Below are positions 18,501 through 56,801 of a DNA stretch of 64,000 nt, one piece after another. The notes beneath the pieces were generated by a model that worked only from the letters and a program-made list of their open reading frames with translations, had not been told where the DNA came from and ran no database searches. The position numbers and the translations under genes were made by a program. Source of the stretch: Okamejei kenojei (lineage: Eukaryota); the NCBI GenBank assembly GCA_035221665.1, contig CM069152.1, positions 13,950,001 through 14,014,000 on the forward strand, written 5' to 3'. Positions within the stretch are counted from its first letter, which is position 1; each line of letters opens with the position of its first letter.

Positions 18501-21500
18501 GCAGGTGCGGCTAATGGGTTCCCGTTGTGACGCCATCGATCCCCGTTGTGACGCGTCACGGCAACCCTCCCCCAACAGCGCAGGCGTGGTCGGCAAGTGG
18601 CAGCGCCATTGTGACGTTTTTGAAGTTCAAAATGGCAATAACTTGTAAAAAATAAGATAAATCTGAACGCATCTCAATCTTCTTCTTGAGTCCCCTATTC
18701 CCCTCCTCCATTATCCACCCTCCACCAATACTCCTCTGCTTCCTGCCCTCACCCCCTCCCTCCTGTCCTCCCTCTACCCCTTCCCCTCCATTACCTCATA
18801 CCTTTTCCTACCCCTAACCTCTTCCTTTCCCCTCCTCCACCCCTCCCCCACTCCCTCCCTCACCTCTCCCTCCCTCTCCTTTCCCCTACACTCAGTCACT
18901 CCCTCCCTCCCTCCATAACCCCTCTCCCCTCAATAACCCCCTCCTCTCCCTCTATCCTCCTGCCCCCCCCCCCCCTCTCACGTCCCCCTATCCCACTTCC
19001 CCACAATTAAAATCAGGATTTGTTTTAAATGAAATTCTCAATGAAAATCACATTTTCCCTTTAAAATAACCTAACACAACGTTAGCTGTGAATGAAAACG
19101 GACGAATTTGATTAAAACTGATTTTTTTTTTAAAATCGCTATTTAAAAAAATATATATAAATGAGATTGTGGATCCCATCGTGATGTCATACGCGGCTAA
19201 CGGATTATATTTTCTCATTATAAATGGCACAGGTAATCACTGGGACCCTGATTGTACCCGTTCATATATTTAAAATGTACTAATTGACCTAGTGCAATGT
19301 CTAGTTATTAAAAGCTTGGCATGGGAATGGTGATTATCAGCTGTGTTCTTTGATGACTGTTACCATGACTTTAATTTCTATCACTGGTCTAGAATAAACC
19401 AAAAAACTTTAATTTGTAGCTGTTGAAAGTTTTTTTTTAGTTTAGTTTATTGTCATGCGTACAGTGAAAAGCTTTTGTTGTGTGCTAACCAGTAACCAGC
19501 TTTTTTGTTTTTTTTGTTGGTACCAGTGGAAATACAGTGGGCAATTAAGGATTCATTTAACTTTTGATTCTGAAATTCCGTAAATGGTTTTACCTTTATT
19601 GTGGCGCAGTTAATGTTTCTTTCCCTCCATCTCAAATTACCCCGCCTCCAATCAACTGTGATCTTGGGTTAGGAACTGTATAGAAAATGGATATAAATAT
19701 GGAGACAATTTAACTGTTTAGCAATTAAATTGGCAGGTCTTACAGTTCTGAGGCGAGCATTCAAATCTCAACGTGGCAGCTTTGGAATTTAAATTCATTC
19801 AATAATCTGGAATGTGCAAGGAAAAGAAAACCTACCTTTAGTTAATGATCACCGTGTAAGATACTGAATTGTCAATTAAAAAAAAACTATCTGCCTCATT
19901 GATGTCCTTCAGGGAAAGAGATCTTCCATCCTCACCCATCTGACCCAAATATCCAACCAGACCCACTCTACTTGACTGATTCTTACATGCCCTCTGAACT
20001 CACCAACAAACCATTCAGTTAAGAAGGAATTCGCCACTCCTTTAGAAGGTAATTATGATTGGGGAAATAAACTGCCAGCAACATCCAGATTTCAAAAATG
20101 AAGTTTAAAAATAAATGAAGGTGCTGGTTTTTGTTCCCCGTCCTATTCTGAATTTGTTTGTCTCAACTAGAAAGATTGTAGGCTCATGAAGTAGGTCCCT
20201 TCTCTATTTAGGTCTTGTTTTATATCACTTCCTATTCTAAAAGGATGTAGGTGGGTTATTTGATGAAAATTTCTTGTCAAGGTCACTTGTCGATAAGAAT
20301 AAAATCTCAAACTAATAACAGAATTGTATCATGACGATGGTACCTTCTTACGAGGGCAGAATGAGCAATTTTTGCAACAATATATGGAAATCTGTGAAGG
20401 GGGGGGGGGGGTTACACAAAATGCTGGAGAAACTCAGCGGGTGCAGCAGCATCTAAGGAGCGAAGGAGATAGGCGACGTTTCGGGTCGAGACCCTTCTTC
20501 AAACTGGTCAGGGATCAGGGAAACGAGAGATATAGACGGTGATGTGAGAGATAAAGAACAATGAATGAAAGATATGCAAAAAAGTATCGATGATAAAGGG
20601 AACAAGCCATTGTAAGCTGTTTGTGGTGTGAAAATGAGAAGCTAGTGCGACTAGGGTGGGGGAGGGAGATAGAGATAGAGGGAATGCCAGGGCCCGAGGG
20701 CTGAGGGAGAGGTGGGAGGGGGAGGAGACAGCAGGGGTTAACAGAATTGAGAAAATTCAATGTTCAAGCCCAAAGGATGCAAACTCCCCAAGCGGAATAT
20801 AAGGTGCTGTTCCTCCAACTTGCGGTGTTGCTCACTCTGGCCATGGAGGAGGCCCAGGACCGAGAGGTCGGATACGGAATGGGAGGGGGAATTGAAGTGC
20901 TGAGCGACCGGGAGGTCGGGTTGGTTTTTGCGGACCGAGCGGAGGTGTTCGGCGAAACGATCGCCAAGCCTCCGCTTGGTCTCACCGATATAGATCATCT
21001 GGCATCTGGAGCAGCGGATGCAGTAGATGAGGTTGGAGGAGGTGCAGGTGAACCTCTGTCGGACCTGGAAGGACTGCTTGGGTCCCTGAAAGGAGTGGAG
21101 GGGGGAGGTGAAGGGACAAGTGTTGCATTTCTTGCGGTTGCAAGGGAAAGTGCCCGGGGAAGGAGTTGAGCGGGAGGGGAGGGAAGAATTGACAAGGGAG
21201 TCGCGGAGGGACCGATCTTTGCGGAAGGCAGACAGGGGGGGAGATGGGAAGATGTGGCGGGTGGAGGGGTCACGTTGGAGGTGGCGAAACTGGCGGAGGA
21301 CTATCTGTTGTATTTGCCGGCTGGTGGGGTGAAAGGTGAGGACCAGGGGGACTCTGCCCTGTTTGCGAGTGGGGGAATGGGGAGAGAGGGCAGTGTTGCG
21401 GGGTATGGAGGAGACCCTGGTGCGAGCCTCATCAATAGTGGGGGAGGGGAATCCCCGTTCTCTGAAGAATGAGGCCATTTGTGATGACCTGGTGTGAAAC

Positions 21501-45100: not shown

Positions 45101-48100
45101 CTGTGGACCGAATGGACCATTTCCTTGTTGCATGTCTTTGATGCTGTGGCAAGTCAGTTGATTCTCTTGCCTTTTCCTCCAGCACACCCCATAACTTTCA
45201 TTCATGCGCTTTCAACAGGCAAGTCTTTTGACATCATAATTTCCTTTCACCACAGTTGAAAAGGTCTGATCCATTTCACACATCATTGCTCTTATCCCTT
45301 TCTCCAGTCCAACTTGTTCAAACCAAGAAAAAGCTCTCCTTATCCAGGTTTTCAGATTCAAAAGGAGCACTTAGATCAGTTTAAAGATACAGTGTGGAAA
45401 TAGGCTCCTCAGCACACCAAACCCACACCAACCAATGATCACCCATACACTCCCTCTATCCTACACACTAGGAACAATTTAAAGAAGTCAATTAACCGAC
45501 AAAGCTACACGCCTTTGGAATGTGGGAGCACCCGGAGGAAACCCACGTGGTCACAGGGAGAACTTATAAACTTCATACAGACAGCACCGTAGTCAGCATT
45601 GATCCTGGATCTCCGGCGCTCTACGGCAGCAACTCCACCGTTGCGCCATTGTACGCAATTATCTTTTTTTCTCTGAAATTTCCAATACCTGTACCTCCAA
45701 AATAATGAAATTTTCCCTCTATTTCCCCTTTAGAATTACAAAGAGACGGTTCTCTCTAACACGCGTGGATTGCGGTCCCTATTATAGTACATTTCCATTT
45801 CTAGTAGATAAAACTCCTGTCATTTTTCTACTTTCTCATCGTCATCCTCCTCAGTTTTCTCAGTGAAGCACTGATTTACTTATGTTCAAGATAATATGTT
45901 TATTGAGGACCCCACAAGCAGATTTGGTGACTGCTTTGTGAAACACAGGGCTGACCCGTGCTTCCAGTTACTTGTTCTTTTAATTCGGTCTCATTCCAAC
46001 TGTCCTCAGCTCTCCCATCCAAATCTTAATGCAAGTTCAAGCAAAAACGCATCTTCCGGCAAAGCATACTATACCCTGACATGTTCAATTTCAAATAATC
46101 ATATATTATTTGCGATTTCCAGCATTCCATCCATCAGCCTCTGGTAGTCACAATTGTTCTGAATATACAGTTCCTCCAGACTGACCCTCCAGACTGACCC
46201 GCCATCTTTTCTTGCTTTGTATCAACATTCCTTTCGTCATTAAATCTCTCTTGCTTCCCATTTTTCACAGAACTTTTGTAGTTGCCTCTCTTGACCTGGC
46301 TTGATTTGGTCTGAAGTAGGGCCCCCATTCGAAACATCACCTGTCCATTTTCTCCAGAGATGCTGCCTGACCTGCTGAGTTACTCCAGCATTTTGTGTTT
46401 ATCTTTGGTATAAACCAGCAACTGCAGTTCCTTATTATTATTATATTATCTTTTGACCCCTTTCTCCGTATTTAAAAAACTCAACTTTCCCAGTGCTTAT
46501 CAAACCTCCAACACCCAAAATAATTTTTGTTAGACTTTTAGATTTCAACGATTGCAGAATTTTGCTTTCTATTGGCATGATTAAATGTTGGATGAAGTCT
46601 GCTTGCGCCCATGTCTAGACATACTGGTCCCATAAACAGGATTTTAGTTTTCCAGCTTCCATGCCACTATTCTCTAGTAATACTGATAATTATTGTGTTT
46701 AACTCCTTCAGACAACTCCTTCATTCCCTTACCCATAAACCAGATATCACAGTTGTTATCCTTTTAATCTCATTATTAGTTTGCATCCATTCACACTGAG
46801 CCCCAGCTGAACACAACGTACTTGCTGAGTAATGAGGCCATCATAAAGTGACTGTTCAGCCTGGTCCCATCTCTTCTGCAGCTCCTCCTTCAGATTAGGG
46901 TAAACTACAGAAATAAACAAATCTTAGCAGGTGTTGTGTTGCTGTCTTCCCCATTCCAACACTCACCACACACAATTTCACTCACATTCACCACTCCAGA
47001 GCACCCCATCAAAAACACCGCCTCCTCATCACAACACAGTCCCTTAAACGCGTCATCCCATCTTCAATCCTTTTATGTTTCCCCAAATATGTCAGCCTCT
47101 CGTCCTCTCTGACAAAATGCACCCATATCATATCCAGACCCTGGTTGGATGGAAGTATGTTATAATTCTCAGGTGTGGGAAGGCACAATTCAGTTGCACT
47201 GCAGACCCTATTCCAGGAGGGAGTGATAACGCCACTTTACCTGAAGCCATCCTCAGCTCTCTCATGTTCTGAGGAATGACTTCCTTACTCACCCAGGAGT
47301 GATTGGGGATGGCAGACTAATGGTGTTTCGAAGGTGAGCCAGTAGATGCAAGTGTTGGGCTCAGAAACATGAGCCAGTTTGTGGCTGGTTCCACATGTGA
47401 AAAGGACCTGTGAATGAGAGAGAAGAGTTTCATTTGGTAGAGCAGAGGAGTGGCAGCGTTATTAACGATCACATTGCCCGATTAACCCAGGGTCTGACCG
47501 GAGCCGTGAGAGACTAACCACCTTGTGAGGCAAACCAACACCCCCCCCCCCCCCCGCTAATGGCTGAGTGCATTGTCGCAGAGCCCGATTAACCCAGGGT
47601 CTGACCGGAGCCGTGAGAGACTAACCACCTTGTGAGGCAAACCAACCCCGCCCCCCCCCCCCCCCCGCTAATGGCTGAGTGCATTGTCGCAGAGCCCATG
47701 CTGGTTTCTCGCTGTTAGCTTATCTGACACTGGTTACTTATTAGGTACACTCTAGCAGAATGAGGGTTTTGAAAATATTGGTTTCCGGCTCCCTATTCCC
47801 TCAGCTTGCACATCAATGAGCCTTGAAGTAGTGTCAGTTCACATTCAGTACACTGAGCAAAGGAAAAGGGAACACCTACCTTGGTCTGTCTGTTCTTGCT
47901 GGCACAAGAATCTCCCTCCTTCATCCACATTCCCACAAAGGTGTTGTTTACAATCTCCCATTCCAGCCATATGCTACAGAATAAAAGACAGTCAGATACC
48001 CATTTATTTTTCCTTAATCCTGATTCATCCACGTTCATGCCCCGCCTTAAATGTAACTGCATGACAATTTACCCAATTTCGATCCACATCCCCATTACAC

Positions 48101-51100: not shown

Positions 51101-54100
51101 AAGAAAAATGAAACTTTTTTTTACATCCGTATCTCTGAATCTAATCCTTGTTCACTAGATTACAATCACATAACACGTCAAACTGGGTTATGATCATGTC
51201 AGCGAATCCCCAACATGACTGGGTTTGGCCAACGAATACCATGTAGAAATAAGCAAAAATAAATCTATCACTTAATTTCATGAGTTCATAAATTCTGGGA
51301 GCAGAATTATGCCATTCGGCCCATCAAGTCTACTCTGCCATTCAATCATGGCTGATCTATCTCTACCTCTCAACCCCATTCTCCTGCCTTCTCCCCATAA
51401 CCCCTGACAATCAAGAATCTGTCAATCTCCAGATTAAAAATATCCATTGACGGCCTCCACAGCCATCTGTGGCAATGAATTCAACAGATTCAACATCCTC
51501 TGACCGAAGAAATTCCTTCTTATCTCCTTTCTAAAGCTACGTTCTTTTAATCTGAAGCTATGGCCTCCGGTCCTAGATGCTCCCACTAATGGAAACATCA
51601 TTTCCACATTCACTCTATCCAGGCCTAGGTTTCCCAGACTTAGTGGGGCTGTGCAAGTCTGGGTTTGTACTTCAGCAATATGTCGGCATTTCCCTTCAGA
51701 ACTGCCAGCCACAGACAGTTTTATTTGATCCATTATGTAACGATGGAGGTATAGGAGTGGATGCAAAACAAAAGATTTACAAAGTTGTTTCCACAACTGT
51801 CAGTTCATAACCAAAATGAAAGGCTGAATGTATACAATTTCCCTTTGAAATTGTAGATTTCATGAGCACTGTGTATCTTTATACAAAATGCTAGTAAAAT
51901 GCACCATCCATCTAACTGGGAGATTGTCGTTACTGCAGTCAATAAAATTTCTACTCACGAAGACTCAATCATACTGAAGCATTTCCCAGCTAGTTTGTGC
52001 AGATGTGGTGGGCCTGAAAGAAATAAAAACACTTGACAATGTACATTATATATTGGTAATTATAAGCCCCATTTGTGGGCAGAGTCAATAGATCTCATGT
52101 GAGGAGTAGCATGGGGAGAAGGCAGCGTGGTAAAAAGGAGAGATCGTAGTAAGAAGAGTGCTAAGGGGGATTTAGTCTGGGGAAAGTGGGTGTGGAGAAT
52201 ATAACTGATGAGTGATGGTAGAGAGGAAGTGCTGGCAGGAAACAATGAAGGGCTAAAATCGCATCATCCATTACCTGAAATGGCAGCAGGACTTATTTTT
52301 GGTTGAAGCCGGGTTACTTGGGACAGGAAAGGATTATTCAACCTGAAATACAAATAACCACATTTTATTGATTGTTTGAGGTGGGGAATTAGTGCTAATA
52401 AATTTCTATTTTTTCCCTCCATATCTGTGGGGTAATTTCAGAGAAGGCCTCAATTCCAGATTGTACTCAATCCTGTCTTGAGGTGTGTAGGAAAGAGCTG
52501 CAGATGCTGGTTTACATCGTGGGTAGACATGAAATGCTGGCGTATTGTAACTCAGCAGGACAGGCAGCATATCTGGAGAGAAGGAATGGGTGACGTTTTG
52601 GGTCGAGTCCCTTCTTCAGAAGAAGTCTGAAGAAGGGTCTCGACCTGAAACATCACCCATTCCTTCTCTCCAGAGATGTTGCCTGTCCCACTGAGTTACT
52701 CCGGCATTTTGTGTCTACCTTCTGTCTTAGAGTACTTGCTCTGGGTGAAACCTGGTTCCCAAGGTTATATGGTCTCATCCACCTTATCATCTGACAAAGA
52801 GGTCTTTCTGTAACTTTACATCCTTTGGATGGTCTAGAAGTTGAGTACTCAACTATACTTTCTTTTAAATCCCAGTACTGGACATTTTCCACCCTCATTC
52901 CATGGTATAAAACCTGTCACCATTTTACGCAAAGTCTTATACACTGTTTTCTGAAAATCCCAAACTGCCTTACAGACCAAGAATAACTTTTAAAGTGTAT
53001 TACCCTGTCGTTATGTCAGGCTCTGCAATTTGTATATATTATATACCTACAAACAGCAATGTTTTCACAACTACATCATAATATTAAGTACTGTATTACA
53101 TTTACAGGACACTGGGAAGAACGCTTTAAACAGTGTCATGGGACATTTACATCTGAGGTGCAAAACATGCTTTTGGCTTACAGTTCCCCAGTACAGATTC
53201 ACATTGGAGTATCAGTCTGGATTTGGCCCAAGGTCTTTGGAGTTGGATTTGACCCACAATCTGTGGCTTGAGAAGCAACTAAACCAATAAAAATAGCGAA
53301 ATGAAGTTATTCATCACTGCCTGATCTGGGAAGATCCCCACCACTCTGACCCTCCAAGGAGAACGATTGTTTTTGCATTTACTTACCCGTAGGTGTTGGG
53401 CTCTTCTACAATTTTCATTTTAGTAGCCGAGATGCCAAGAACTGCAGAAGGGAAAGAAAATGAAATCTATTAATATCAGAGTTCAAGTCCAGAAGCACAG
53501 GAAGAAATGGAAGCGGCTTGTTGTCGGACGGTATTAAAAGCTGCGGACAAAAAAGTGTGGGAAGGAACTGTGGAGTCCAGGACCACAGTGTGTCAGAGTG
53601 ACTGGGCAGGTCGGGGCTGGGATGCCGGTTGTTGCATCCAACTGTGATGTCGGGTGCATTGAGTGGTCATTGACCAGAAGCACACCTAACCTTGGACTGA
53701 CCAATACCTGGGCCGGGGCTGGACAAACAGCTATTATGTCCCTCGCCCCTTAGTCAAATATCCGCATCGAGGGATGTGTAGGTACAAACAACCTAGGCCG
53801 GGAACGGAGACTCACAGTGCAGCCAGGGGGAGAGTGATTCACAGTGCAGCCAGAAGATGGGCTCAATGCAGCCAGAGGAGAGGGGTTCACAGTGCAGTCA
53901 GAGGAGAGGGGTTGTGGGGACTCACGGCGCAACCAGAGGAGGGGGATTCACAGTGCAGTCAGAGGGGGGTGGGAGAGTTTGGGGACTAGGAGCAGGCAGA
54001 GGAGGGGGACTCACAGTGTAGCCAGAGGAGACGGGGGGGGGGGGGGGGGGGTGCAGCGGGGGGGGAGGGGAGAGTTGGGGGACAGTGTAACCAGAGAGAG

Positions 54101-54641
54101 AGGGGGGGAGTAGGGGTACTCACAGTGCCGCCAGAGGAGGGGGGTTCACAGTGCAGCCAGAGAGGGGGGACAGTGGAGAGAGGGGGGGAGTAGGGGTACT
54201 CACAGTGCCGCCAGAAGGGGGGGGGGTCACAGTCCAGCCAGAGGAGACGGGGGAGGGAGGAGAGTTGGGGGACAGTGCAGCCAAAGAGAGGGGGGGAGTA
54301 GTGGTACTCACAGTGCACAGAGGGGGGGGGGGGTTCAGTGCAGTCAGAGGAGGGGGAGGGGGACAGTGCAGCCAGAGAGGGGGTGGAGGGGACTCACAGT
54401 GCAGCCAGAGGAGGGGGGACTCACAGTGCAGCCAGAGAGGGGGACAGTGCAGCCAGAGAGGGGGGGGGGGTAGGGGTACGCACAGTGCGCCAGAGGGGGG
54501 GGGGGGTTCAGTGCAGCCAGATGAGGAGGGACAGTGCAGCCAGAGGAGGGGGTGGAGGGGACTCACAGTGCAGCCAGAGGAGGGGGTGGGGGGGGGGAAC
54601 TCACAGTGCAGCCAGAGGAGACAGAGGCCGCCCATCGCCAT
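42100..54641 (-). CDS. GNPTG: N-acetylglucosamine-1-phosphotransferase subunit gamma, complete, 294 aa; complement(join(42100..42191,43183..43261,44474..44596,46822..46904,47293..47407,47880..47973,48764..48847,51959..52013,52275..52342,53387..53441,54605..54641))
   Basis: Spliced translation: signal peptide [39 protein letters not shown] domain ([44 protein letters not shown]...[22 protein letters not shown]), FEDAGYLK, C-terminus [13 protein letters not shown]. 11 exons with GT-AG introns and consistent phases. Confidence 0.95.
43183..43261 (-). CDS. GNPTG: GNPTG exon 10
   Basis: ttttag|GAG CGG AAT AAA...CCT G|gtcagt; [26 protein letters not shown]. Confidence 0.88.
43300..44020 (+). mobile_element. 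Degenerate CR1 RT fragments
   Basis: Decayed DFQKAF/VPQG/FADDTK-type text (tttgctgaggacacaaaaatt). Confidence 0.55.
44474..44596 (-). CDS. GNPTG: GNPTG exon 9
   Basis: tttcag|GGT TAC AGG...AAT GAG|gtaggg; [22 protein letters not shown]...ETLSRCNE. Confidence 0.93.
45378..45650 (-). mobile_element. tRNA-derived SINE (HE1/V-SINE-like)
   Basis: ctttggaatgtgggagcacccggaggaaacccacgtggtcacagggagaac, the V-SINE-type core in reverse. Confidence 0.75.
45895..46432 (+). mobile_element. Degenerate Penelope-like 3' fragment with tail
   Basis: [15 protein letters not shown] (decayed [15 protein letters not shown]); tail CTGAAGTAGGGCCCCCATTCGAAACATCACC...GATGCTGCCTGACCTGCTGAGTTACTCCAGC. Confidence 0.7.
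46822..46904 (-). CDS. GNPTG: GNPTG exon 8
   Basis: ctgtag|TT TAC CCT...CAG CAA|gtacgt; [28 protein letters not shown]. Confidence 0.94.
47293..47407 (-). CDS. GNPTG: GNPTG exon 7
   Basis: tcacag|GTC CTT TTC...CTG G|gtgagt; [38 protein letters not shown]. Confidence 0.96.
47476..47697. repeat. Tandem duplication, two copies of about 107 bp, in GNPTG intron 6
   Basis: GCCCGATTAACCCAGGGTCTGACCGGAGCC...GTCGCAGA starts at 47476 and again at 47583; the copies differ mainly around the poly-C run. Confidence 0.92.
47880..47973 (-). CDS. GNPTG: GNPTG exon 6
   Basis: ctgtag|C ATA TGG...ACC AAG|gtaggt; [31 protein letters not shown]. Confidence 0.96.
48190..48485 (+). mobile_element. tRNA-derived SINE (HE1/V-SINE-like) with CR1-type tail
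   Basis: B-box-like GGTTTGATCCC, core TGTTCTCCCCGTGA...GGGTTTTCTC...CTCCCACACTCCAAA, tail GGGCCTGTTTCCGTGCTGTATCT. Confidence 0.8.
48764..48847 (-). CDS. GNPTG: GNPTG exon 5
   Basis: ctgcag|G TAC AAA TAC...CTT GG|gtatgt; [28 protein letters not shown]. Confidence 0.96.
50668..51055 (-). mobile_element. RTE-related non-autonomous element
   Basis: (TAC)n tail on the minus strand; RTE-5'UTR-like text ggactgccttcccaggctgacaagcccc; AAGTAGTA on both flanks. Confidence 0.5.
51959..52013 (-). CDS. GNPTG: GNPTG exon 4
   Basis: tttcag|GC CCA CCA CAT...TCT TC|gtgagt; [18 protein letters not shown]. Confidence 0.93.
52275..52342 (-). CDS. GNPTG: GNPTG exon 3
   Basis: tttcag|G TTG AAT AAT CCT...TCA G|gtaatg; [22 protein letters not shown]. 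Confidence 0.93.
52482..52721. mobile_element. Fold-back Penelope-tail element in GNPTG intron 2
   Basis: Arms of about 95 bp (about 52524-52620 and 52626-52719) with a 5-nt spacer; CTGTCTT on both flanks. Confidence 0.85.
53387..53441 (-). CDS. GNPTG: GNPTG exon 2
   Basis: ctgcag|TT CTT GGC...TAC GG|gtaagt; [18 protein letters not shown]. Confidence 0.93.
53806..54620 (-). repeat. G/C-rich minisatellite in GNPTG intron 1, about 27 degenerate units of CTC(CTC)TGGCTGCACTGTGAGT(C)n
   Basis: Repeated plus-strand motif actcacagtgcagccagagg separated by G runs; the last unit is the true exon-1/intron-1 junction. Confidence 0.92.
54605..54641 (-). CDS. GNPTG: GNPTG exon 1 (coding part, signal peptide)
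   Basis: ATG GCG ATG GGC GGC CTC TGT CTC CTC TGG CTG CAC T|gtgagt; phase 1 matches exon 2; lies in the CpG island. Confidence 0.85.
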
Positions 54642-55030
54642 AACGACGGCCAGGCCGCGGTTCCGGGCACCGCGCCGGAAGTGCCGCGATGCTGGGTAAA
54701 AGCGAACACTTCCACGGGCAAATTTCCACGAACCGCAGGTCGACAGGTAAAAGTAGGAGATGCCGGGACGGGCATGTGAAGCGGGGCGGCCGGCCGGCCG
54801 ACGGCGAGGACTCGAGAAGCCAGTGGCGAACGGAGGCGCCTGGTGGCGGATAATGAGGGCGGCCGGTCGCCAGCGCCCGTCCAGGCTCAGGATCAAGCAG
54901 CCAGAGCCAAGGGGGGGCTTTAGTTTGTCGTTGCTGGGGTAAAACTTTCCCCACGGCTGCAAGTCGGCCAAGTACAGGTCGGCGGTCACGGAGCGAGGAG
55001 TGTGGCTGCTGCAGGCCCGGCCCGGCCCTC
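54620..55030. promoter_or_regulatory. CpG island / bidirectional promoter for GNPTG and TSR3
   Basis: Sharp local CpG and GC enrichment between two divergent genes; ETS/GABP motif CCGGAAGTG at 54675-54683; GC-box-like GGGGCGG near 54783. Confidence 0.8.
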
Positions 55031-56050: not shown

Positions 56051-56677
56051 ACAACGCAGGGCAATGTGGGCAGCGGGGTCCTGAGACACCCAAAGCGTTG
56101 TTGCAGTGGTTGTGATGTGCCTTTGGAGTTCTCGACTCGACCTGAACAGCATAGATAGAATAGGCAGTGAGACTTTTTTCTCTTAGCAGTTATGTTTATA
56201 ACAACCTTAAGGTAAAGGCTATGGGATTTAAAGAAAATTTAAGGAAGATTTGTGTTTTCACCCAGAGATGATTGAAATTTGAAATTCACTGCCTGAGGCA
56301 TTGGTAGGGGTAATTTAACTTTTAAGAAGTATTTAGAAGAGTGTTTGACGTACCATTGCATTGAAGGTTATGGGCCAAGTGCTGGAAAATGGGAATAGTA
56401 TTGATAATTCATTGTCAACAAGGACACAGGGTGAACAGCCTGCTTCTGTATTCTGTGACTCTACATTCAAGTAAGATCAATAGATTTTTAGATATTAAGG
56501 GAACAATAGGACACATTGTTAGTGTACAAAGTGATACAGATGTAATTTTATCCATGATGTTACATGTGCCTAATTTCTGCTTTTGTTTCTTGTGTTTTTA
56601 TTTCATGAAATCTTGAGTCAGTTGCCATCGATTGAACTGTCAGCACCTTCAATTCCATTGCTGGCATTCTTGTTCAG

Positions 56678-56801
56678 ATGGGGCGGAAGAAACAGTTTCA
56701 GAAGAAGGAGCGTGCTGGTCCAAAATGGAAAGATGCCCATCATAGAGAGAGGCGCCAATCCTTTGAGACATTTGGAGAGGATGTTCATGATGCTCTGCAA
56801 G
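56678..56801 (+). CDS. TSR3: TSR3 first coding exon
   Basis: ttgttcag|ATG GGG CGG AAG...CTG CAA G|gtgcgt; [41 protein letters not shown]. Confidence 0.85.

Follow-up and report, generated by a model that had tools for sequence, protein, structure and literature searches.

A minisatellite across the exon 1/intron 1 junction of GNPTG in the skate Okamejei kenojei, with assembled RNA spliced at the authentic donor

The first intron of GNPTG in Okamejei kenojei opens with a minisatellite whose first unit lies across the end of exon 1 and its splice donor, and this array belongs among the already known junction-spanning minisatellites of human F7, 6-16, CBS and ABCA7 and the mirages of amphioxus. 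The reading that we favor, and consider likely, is that the repeat was born at this locus, that the RNA is spliced at the authentic donor, and that the nine further intact copies of that donor are silent or nearly silent pseudo-sites. Positions below are those of the window, the whole stretch of 64,000 nucleotides that was analysed (GCA_035221665.1, contig CM069152.1, positions 13,950,001 to 14,014,000). The gene features at this end of GNPTG are as follows.

54605..54641, minus strand: coding part of GNPTG exon 1, 12 residues plus 1 nt (37 coding nt), ATG at 54641; placed by tblastn, and 54605 is where exon 1 stops in RNA contigs.
54599..54604, minus strand: authentic 5' splice site GTGAGT of GNPTG intron 1, donor GT at 54604; from the sequence and RNA contigs.
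53810..54620, minus strand: junction-spanning minisatellite, the exon-1 end plus 26 degenerate copies of 21-43 nt each, with poly-C spacers.
53387..53441, minus strand: GNPTG exon 2, 55 nt, with the rest of the predicted signal peptide and then MKIVEEP, ATG at exon position 24; the acceptor AG precedes 53441.
52275..52342, minus strand: GNPTG exon 3, 68 nt; from protein homology, with the joint 52012-52274 in RNA contigs.
54673..54746, plus strand: non-coding first exon of a head-to-head neighbor (PF04034), overlapping the GNPTG 5' end; donor 54747, exon 2 from 56622, ATG 56678.

Exon 1 is predicted to encode the first half of the signal peptide. The repeat was seeded by the last 16 nt of this exon, and its copies match the real exon end over as many as 16 nt. 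Annotated skate GNPTG proteins align by tblastn with residues 1-12 at 54641-54606 and residues 14-31 at 53439-53386, P0004 at 100% identity, and intron 1 is 1163 nt long. The neighbor, whose exon-1 start at about 54673 was deduced from depth in run X21, is taken to be TSR3, in keeping with human synteny.

Each unit of the array consists of the last 13-16 bases of exon 1, the splice donor and a poly-C spacer, and the earlier note's description of the repeat as an amplified exon-1 end with its 5' splice site is borne out by the gene junction and by unit mapping. Its figure of about 27 units after the junction needs adjusting: there are 27 cores only when the real exon end (unit 0, 54620-54599) is included, followed by 26 copies reaching 53816. 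Higher-order duplications of ~85 and 170-190 nt overlie the units, and TRF reports periods of 21-34 together with higher-order ones of 63-188. A search with the 15-nt core at up to 2 mismatches gave 21 matches, all within 53814-54617, against 0.10 expected and with none of 100 shuffles reaching 21. In the 2.76 Gb genome the exact 18-nt core plus donor occurs four times, each time inside the array, and the other genome matches of the region are short or are low-complexity sequence at 64-79% identity; a dispersed-repeat origin of the unit was accordingly rejected. What is found here – a first unit across the real boundary, head-to-tail copies in the 10-100 bp range, intact donors in some copies, a unit local to the gene, and main use of the upstream donor at contig level – is what characterizes F7-type or mirage minisatellites. 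A literature search, mostly at the level of titles, turned up nothing published on a repeat in GNPTG intron 1 or on arrays of this type in skates. We infer that a short duplication over the exon/intron boundary, beside a stretch rich in G runs, seeded the repeat, that it was amplified in blocks (~85 and 170-190 nt) by slippage or unequal exchange, and that the copies then presumably decayed without selection keeping the donors.

Which donor is used was examined at the level of Logan contigs, which drop rare forms, with joints judged among the matches listed, where SINE and LINE rows dominate. Runs X10 and X14 are from the same species and X21 is from another organism; all three lack RNA annotation on record and are probably RNA because their contigs are spliced. 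The check that the earlier note had proposed, junction usage into exon 2, has a uniform outcome at this level, with the main contig leaving exon 1 at 54605 in all three runs. X10 record 6 and X14 record 11 show 0 differences over 54605-54743 and then continue for exactly 124 further letters, where exon 2 plus exon 3 predicts 123 and use of the copies at +38, +180 and +207 would predict 161, 303 and 330; X21 record 21 likewise ends at 54605. The depth of the exon-2 bin is also fully explained by the main contig in each run (19.50 vs 19.5; 23.18 vs 23.2 over 57 nt; 44.40 vs 44.4 over 55 nt).

The hexamer GTGAGT starts at 54604, the real donor, and in nine copies at 54566, 54424, 54397, 54311, 54203, 54123, 54014, 53925 and 53815, in agreement with all ten positions noted earlier. 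The pseudo-donors, with their offsets from the real one, are these.

54561..54566, minus strand: pseudo-donor 1 (+38), frameshift; a 33-codon open reading frame whose terminal TGA overlaps the exon-2 ATG.
54419..54424, minus strand: pseudo-donor (+180); in phase and free of stops as assembled, would add 60 aa.
54392..54397, minus strand: pseudo-donor (+207); in phase and free of stops as assembled, would add 69 aa.
54306..54311, minus strand: pseudo-donor (+293), out of frame; GTGAGTA, one extra predicted U1 pair.
54198..54203, minus strand: pseudo-donor (+401), out of frame; GTGAGTA.
54118..54123, minus strand: pseudo-donor (+481), out of frame; GTGAGTA, its own TGA closing the 173-codon read-through frame.
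54009..54014, minus strand: pseudo-donor (+590), beyond the stop.
53920..53925, minus strand: pseudo-donor (+679), GCC/GTGAGT, beyond the stop.
53810..53815, minus strand: last pseudo-donor (+789), in phase, yet beyond the stop.

The earlier arithmetic, with a frameshift at +38 and an open frame that would gain 60 and 69 residues at +180 and +207, is confirmed by the sequence, and so is the claim that the GNPTG frame runs open into the array, which it does for 173 codons to a stop at 54122. The two extensions hold 18 and 19 prolines and 6 and 7 cysteines, respectively. Eight of the nine intact copies share the 9-mer ACT/GTGAGT with the real donor, and predicted U1 duplexes range from -5.5 to -6.9 kcal/mol in the copies vs -5.5 for the real donor, three downstream copies being a slightly better predicted match; judged by sequence, the copies appear fit to serve as U1 sites. 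If the favored reading holds, these sites would serve only upon failure of the first donor, and their silence would reflect the rule seen in human F7 that the most upstream of identical donors wins, probably aided, through first-exon definition, by a cap ~100 nt away. In any leak through the +38 copy, exon 2 would bring a premature stop and make the RNA a substrate for NMD, and a leak through +180 or +207 would place a proline-rich insert that splits the signal peptide, with function more likely lost than tuned.

That such leakage does occur, with the nearest copies used at a few to ~15 percent, amounting to splicing noise that costs little in dosage, is in our view unlikely, yet it is the strongest competitor to silence. 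Under it the +38 product, a 33-codon upstream reading frame joined by an ATGA overlap to the exon-2 ATG, would be degraded or would permit re-initiation to a signal-less GNPTG, and the +180 and +207 copies would give rare extended forms. Its case begins with predicted U1 pairing that equals or exceeds that of the real donor, and with the nearest one or two copies being used in human 6-16, CBS and ABCA7 in the accounts available from PMC1557585 and PMC5954066. RNA contig depth of 6-12 is also present in the proximal and middle array, with none in the distal intron: X10 has 10.1 and 9.2 over 54196-54523 and X14 has 5.8 and 12 over 54032-54359, compared with 0-6 in intron bins that lie elsewhere and hold no repeat, and 0-1.3 in 53540-54031. 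With 42 of the 781 array 31-mers repeated, shared words do not fully explain this depth. In the bin 54524-54687 the residual depth (13.0 in X10 and 29.9 in X14) points instead to low-complexity cross-matching, since the DNA run X4 reaches 41.9 there too. We note that missing RNA cover in 53540-54031 proves nothing. Against leakage, the main contig is unbroken across the junction, exon 2 has no residual depth in any of the three runs, and in the part of PMC5954066 dealing with copy use, ABCA7 copy use did not scale with VNTR length.

Proteins on record bear on the same question. Four of the 15 proteins in the skate cluster start at MKIVEEP and are 274 aa long: isoform X2 at NCBI for two annotated skates, plus two further, contig-derived sequences. 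Such a protein is the product expected from out-of-frame splicing; rays, however, are annotated with isoforms that are also short and signal-less but of a different type (244 aa), and such models therefore need no array. All ten skate-cluster sequences that hold both exons read LWLH-FLGISA, and a Pro/Cys insert where exons 1 and 2 meet is absent from all 24 aligned chondrichthyan GNPTG proteins (of 27 listed). The read-through peptide was also compared with longer proteins (as an 81-aa query) and with near-length ones (as a 173-aa query), ~8,000 candidates in each case; this gave no match, nor did Pfam, both being weak tests with a low-complexity query. Separately, the 385-aa and 343-aa proteins P0001, P0010, P0011 and P0016 were considered as array isoforms and rejected: P0001 and P0010 have N-termini antisense to the neighbor's exon 2, P0011 and P0016 align with P0010, and all four are products of unstranded contigs crossing the overlapping 5' ends.

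A stronger form of leakage, which we regard as improbable, would make the array a valve: +38 would lead to the re-initiated 274-aa GNPTG, +180 and +207 to a Pro/Cys-rich spacer within the signal peptide, and poly-C lengths would set how much product is secretory and how much cytosolic or degraded. If this were true, the fast-mutating poly-C runs would flip copies between outcomes. The frames of the copies are set by 6-7 C runs, each 5-12 nt long. Three in-phase donors among nine is the chance level, and in a null model with 1-nt poly-C jitter the probability of at least one open in-frame donor is 0.43 and of at least two 0.15. The 173-codon open frame is slightly unusual in the same null (P=0.022), and its part past +207 serves no in-frame donor. 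Hydropathy barely separates the forms: over residues 1-30, the highest-scoring stretch of 11 residues reaches 2.21 in the canonical vs 1.96 in the extended protein.

Selection of the array as a regulator, by which its length and frame would adjust how much GNPTG is made or how it is targeted to the ER, or the array's load of U1 sites and G-quadruplexes would bias a promoter shared by GNPTG and TSR3, appears very unlikely. The array does begin within ~100 nt of that CpG-island bidirectional promoter (CpG o/e 0.99), its plus strand has a mean G4Hunter score of 1.21 with 30% of 25-nt windows at 1.5 or above vs 1.7% window-wide, and the long open frame noted above would fit. The donor hexamer, however, has been lost from 17 of the 26 copies; it is intact in 9 of 26 vs 15 of 26 for the exon hexamer (Fisher p=0.16, the copies not being independent), and the donors are thus preserved no better than the exon portion and decay at least as fast. 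The dependence of the frames on a few C runs and the absence of an extended protein from the 24 aligned sequences also speak against regulation, as does an RNA strand devoid of G runs. That strand is 50% C with no GGG, the G runs lying on the template strand, and the suggestion in the earlier note of G-quadruplexes or R-loops survives only in part: the sequence excludes an RNA G-quadruplex, the C-rich RNA disfavors an R-loop formed during transcription of GNPTG, and a DNA G-quadruplex on the template strand stays plausible. No AATAAA or ATTAAA occurs in intron 1, and hence no canonical premature poly(A) signal is there for extra U1 sites to suppress. The earlier proposal of competing U1 sites that tune GNPTG output or ER targeting finds no support in contigs that use 54605, a chance-level count of in-frame donors, and decaying donors.

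An origin of the array, or of its proximal part and frames, in faulty assembly is scarcely credible: although the array has 14 C runs of at least 6 nt, and DNA run X4, a second individual from another sample and study, has low contig depth over 54196-54523 (6.3 and 2.8 vs ~22) and no piece crossing the whole array among those listed, X4 shows depth in every bin and a 1244-nt contig that runs from unique flank at 52698 to 53968 and covers the last six units, and diverged units arranged in blocks would not be expected from collapse or expansion of identical reads. Relative to the assembly, X4 has 2 substitutions within the array and, at the array's distal edge, an insertion of 8 nt. The second individual thus bears at least the distal end, and existence of the array is supported, with doubt limited to exact run lengths.

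The closest known counterpart is the 37-bp VNTR of human F7 intron 7, in which the first unit likewise overlies the boundary, the donor is reiterated and the most upstream one is used; in the portion of the source describing it, the downstream pseudo-sites are identical, some are in frame as in GNPTG, and none is used as long as the first site is intact (PMC1557585). F7 differs in having 5-9 near-identical 37-bp units, an internal exon and proven length polymorphism (PMC1557585), whereas GNPTG has 26 degenerate units of 21-43 nt, nine with a donor, at a first exon within signal-peptide codons. The arrays of 6-16 (IFI6) intron 2, CBS intron 13, LMNB2 and PDGF intron 4 also span junctions with 10-25 copies, the 25 pseudo-sites of 6-16 coming near the GNPTG count of 26; the account there gives the first donor as the only one used in F7, LMNB2 and PDGF, and two pseudo-sites as used beside the authentic one in 6-16 and CBS (PMC1557585), unlike GNPTG, for which the contigs show no use of a copy. 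The 25-bp VNTR of ABCA7 intron 18, as reported in part of PMC5954066, resembles GNPTG in its C-rich unit directly after the exon, starting at the donor, and in the frameshift and exposure to NMD that follow, in GNPTG by prediction, from use of the next copy; its unit starts at the GT, in contrast to the GNPTG unit, which starts inside the exon, and its length of ~12-427 units correlates with skipping of the next exon (PMC5954066). Amphioxus mirages (Adh3, BflGb6, BflGb9) are tandem boundary duplications, many but not all with splice signals, described as leaving regular splicing undisturbed, and differ in globin units of 150-160 bp, in copying either boundary, and in haplotype and somatic length instability (PMC3087553, in the sections concerned).

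On the favored reading the GNPTG array is a clean but ordinary example of its kind, one that takes the F7 rule that the first donor wins to a first exon from a cartilaginous fish. Three copies that slightly exceed the real donor in predicted U1 match, together with a split signal peptide, make it a usable natural substrate for the study of 5' splice-site choice, and errors would be costly here because the repeat splits the signal peptide. The spl-TR definition asks that isoform ratio follow repeat length across individuals (PMC10078293, in the part defining the term). If leakage were real and tied to repeat length, a fast-mutating repeat would be linked to the targeting of a subunit of the mannose-6-phosphate pathway.

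A complete GNPTG gene, divided into 11 coding exons, lies on the minus strand of the window. Annotated skate proteins match it exon after exon, with identities mostly of 83-100%, and one of these proteins contains the PRKCSH families PF07915 and PF13015. The predicted protein is not identical to the versions from Leucoraja erinacea, Amblyraja radiata, and Rhinoraja longicauda. In exon 6 (47972-47877) it has a 10-letter stretch (not shown) where 24 of 24 aligned relatives have IWQEWEIEN, a difference of two changes in the mannose-binding domain for which a species change and an assembly error are both candidates. Intron 6 holds a 107-bp direct duplication (47476-47697; 95% identical) that spans no junction. 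The features of the first junction are as follows.

Minus strand, ATG at 54641, last base 54605: coding part of GNPTG exon 1, 37 coding bases
Minus strand, between exon 1 and exon 2: GNPTG intron 1, 1163 nt
Minus strand, starting at 53441: GNPTG exon 2
Minus strand, +38, +180, +207, +293, +401, +481, +590, +679, and +789 (nt downstream of the authentic donor): intact GTGAGT pseudo-donors, 9 of 26 copies

The first 795 nt of intron 1 are 26 degenerate copies, 21-43 nt each, of the exon end and the sequence following it, confirming the earlier note's description of an amplified exon-1 end with its 5' splice site; its count of about ten intact GTGAGT corresponds to nine copies plus the authentic donor. 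Elsewhere the donor hexamer reads GTCCCC (5 copies), GAACCC, GTGAAC, and GTGAAT (2 each), or one of six single variants. The array core gives 21 matches at ≤2 mismatches against 0.10 expected, and the unit is unique to the locus and was born there, since all four occurrences of the 18-nt core plus donor in the 2.76 Gb genome fall inside the array. Higher-order periods of 63, 85, 172, and 188 nt (TRF) and self-aligned offset blocks about 70-75% identical to one another suggest that the array is an older, block-amplified, and decaying one; a short duplication across the exon/intron boundary would have seeded it, followed by amplification in blocks and probably neutral decay. A second C-rich degenerate minisatellite (periods 11-18) lies at 18812-18948.

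An assembly artefact is discounted by sequencing run X4, guessed as DNA and from the same organism but a different sample and study, in which a 1244-nt contig runs from unique flank at 52698 into the array at 53968 with two substitutions within it. An 8-nt insertion in the contig at the distal array edge (window 53801) looks as if part of the flank of the last unit had been duplicated once more. X4 depth is present in 30 of 30 bins, dropping to 6.3 and 2.8 across 54196-54523, and no piece spanning the array is among those listed. The array exists, and its length and poly-C runs here are those of the assembled allele. The frames are sensitive to these runs, since +180 and +207 are separated from the real donor by six or seven stretches of C, each 5-12 nt long; the earlier note had anticipated this dependence on homopolymers.

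Donor use was judged in three runs guessed as RNA, which with X4 make up the 4 compared of 24 listed: X10 and X14, from the same organism and one study, and X21, from another organism in which the array is not on record. X10 and X14 contigs (depth 56 and 67) match 54605-54743 with zero differences and continue for 124 letters past 54605, against an expected 123 for exons 2 and 3 (a content derived by length arithmetic from tables) and 161, 303, and 330 via +38, +180, and +207. The X21 contig likewise exits exon 1 at 54605, and in 3 of 3 runs this single contig accounts wholly for exon-2 bin depth. None of 24 aligned GNPTG proteins (of 27 listed, all from other species) has a Pro/Cys insert at the exon 1/2 joint. 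At contig level, then, and among the joints listed, the authentic first donor is the major one used. RNA depth of 6-12 within 54032-54523 exceeds the 0-6 in repeat-free intron bins; shared words account for it only in part, because just 42 of 781 31-mers in the array are repeated, and it could reflect pre-mRNA, low-complexity cross-matching, or extended exons. Cross-matching is suggested by residual depth in the exon-1 bin that is higher in X4 (41.9) than in RNA runs (13.0 and 29.9). The array depth, and the fact that contigs omit rare forms, weigh against a fully silent array.

The earlier note saw competing U1 sites that could tune GNPTG output; the usable-looking sites stand, but competition and tuning find little favor, given first-donor use, chance-level frames, and no sign of selection to keep the donors. 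The real donor 9-mer is common to eight copies, and three have one extra predicted U1 pair (-6.9 vs -5.5 kcal/mol); as copies equal or exceed the real donor in predicted pairing, their silence is not due to site strength. In this assembly +180 and +207 are indeed in frame and open and +38 shifts the frame, yet the three of nine intact copies in phase are the chance expectation, and two precede the stop. In 20,000 trials that let every C run of ≥4 vary by one base, 43% produced one or more open in-frame donors and 15% two or more; the open frame reached +207 in 25% and its full 173 codons in 2.2%. That frame is a mild oddity without benefit, because no donor beyond +207 and before the stop is in frame. 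Of the 26 copies, 9 retain the donor hexamer and 15 the adjacent exon hexamer (p=0.16, although the copies are not independent of one another), which gives no sign of donor retention.

Use of +180 or +207 would probably be harmful. Intron 1 splits the codons corresponding to the frog signal peptide, residues 1-20 (PMC9388126), and the forms with 60 or 69 added residues would insert 18-19 prolines between hydrophobic core and likely cleavage region, making loss of function the likelier outcome. A further reading, that the copies leak signal-less or extended GNPTG, starts from MKIVEEP, the protein start at the exon-2 ATG, found in 4 of 15 skate-cluster proteins (two being NCBI isoform X2). The +38, +293, and +401 frames run into a stop at position 25 of exon 2, which overlaps the ATG at position 24, so re-initiation after such splicing would yield MKIVEEP proteins. 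Any alternative 5' end produces the same protein, however, and rays possess short isoforms of their own; we regard this reading as improbable. Two Mobula isoform X1 proteins (P0018, P0021) have exons 1-2 swapped for an unrelated 50-aa N-terminus with, as an impression only, a LINE-derived look.

The suggestion that the G runs form RNA G-quadruplexes fails, because the GNPTG RNA strand of the array has no GGG; the runs (G4Hunter mean 1.21, two canonical tracts) lie on the template strand, where DNA G-quadruplexes could contribute to array instability and irregular sequencing coverage. The C-rich RNA strand speaks against R-loops formed by GNPTG transcription.

The head-to-head neighbor we take to be TSR3, from PF04034 and synteny with human. 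The two 5' ends overlap (54673-54746), which places the array just upstream of the TSR3 start. Unstranded RNA contigs pass from GNPTG exon 1 into TSR3 spliced exon 2 (window 56622-56680), giving rise to false 343- and 385-aa 'GNPTG' reading frames in the protein collection. Two proteins from unnamed contigs (P0012, P0013) start MG-MAMGG, perhaps the trace of a template-switch adaptor linked to cDNA that begins directly at the ATG; if so, transcription starts very near 54641.

Similar arrays are known. As summarized in PMC1557585, human F7, LMNB2, and PDGF use the first donor only, as the GNPTG contigs do, whereas 6-16 and CBS use two copies besides it. The F7 pseudo-sites are unused even if in frame and, as here, not for want of site strength; these identical sites function once upstream sites are inactivated and otherwise do not compete. 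Human ABCA7 retains one unit, with NMD (PMC5954066), and amphioxus mirages are the same kind of array (PMC3087553). The skate array shares all five structural features: a boundary-spanning first unit, head-to-tail intronic copies, intact donors, local origin, and the authentic donor as the main one. The literature searched, mostly by listings, held no report of the locus. With its local origin, reiterated donors, and major use of the first donor, the skate GNPTG locus is a further case of junction-spanning arrays, already described as a kind.
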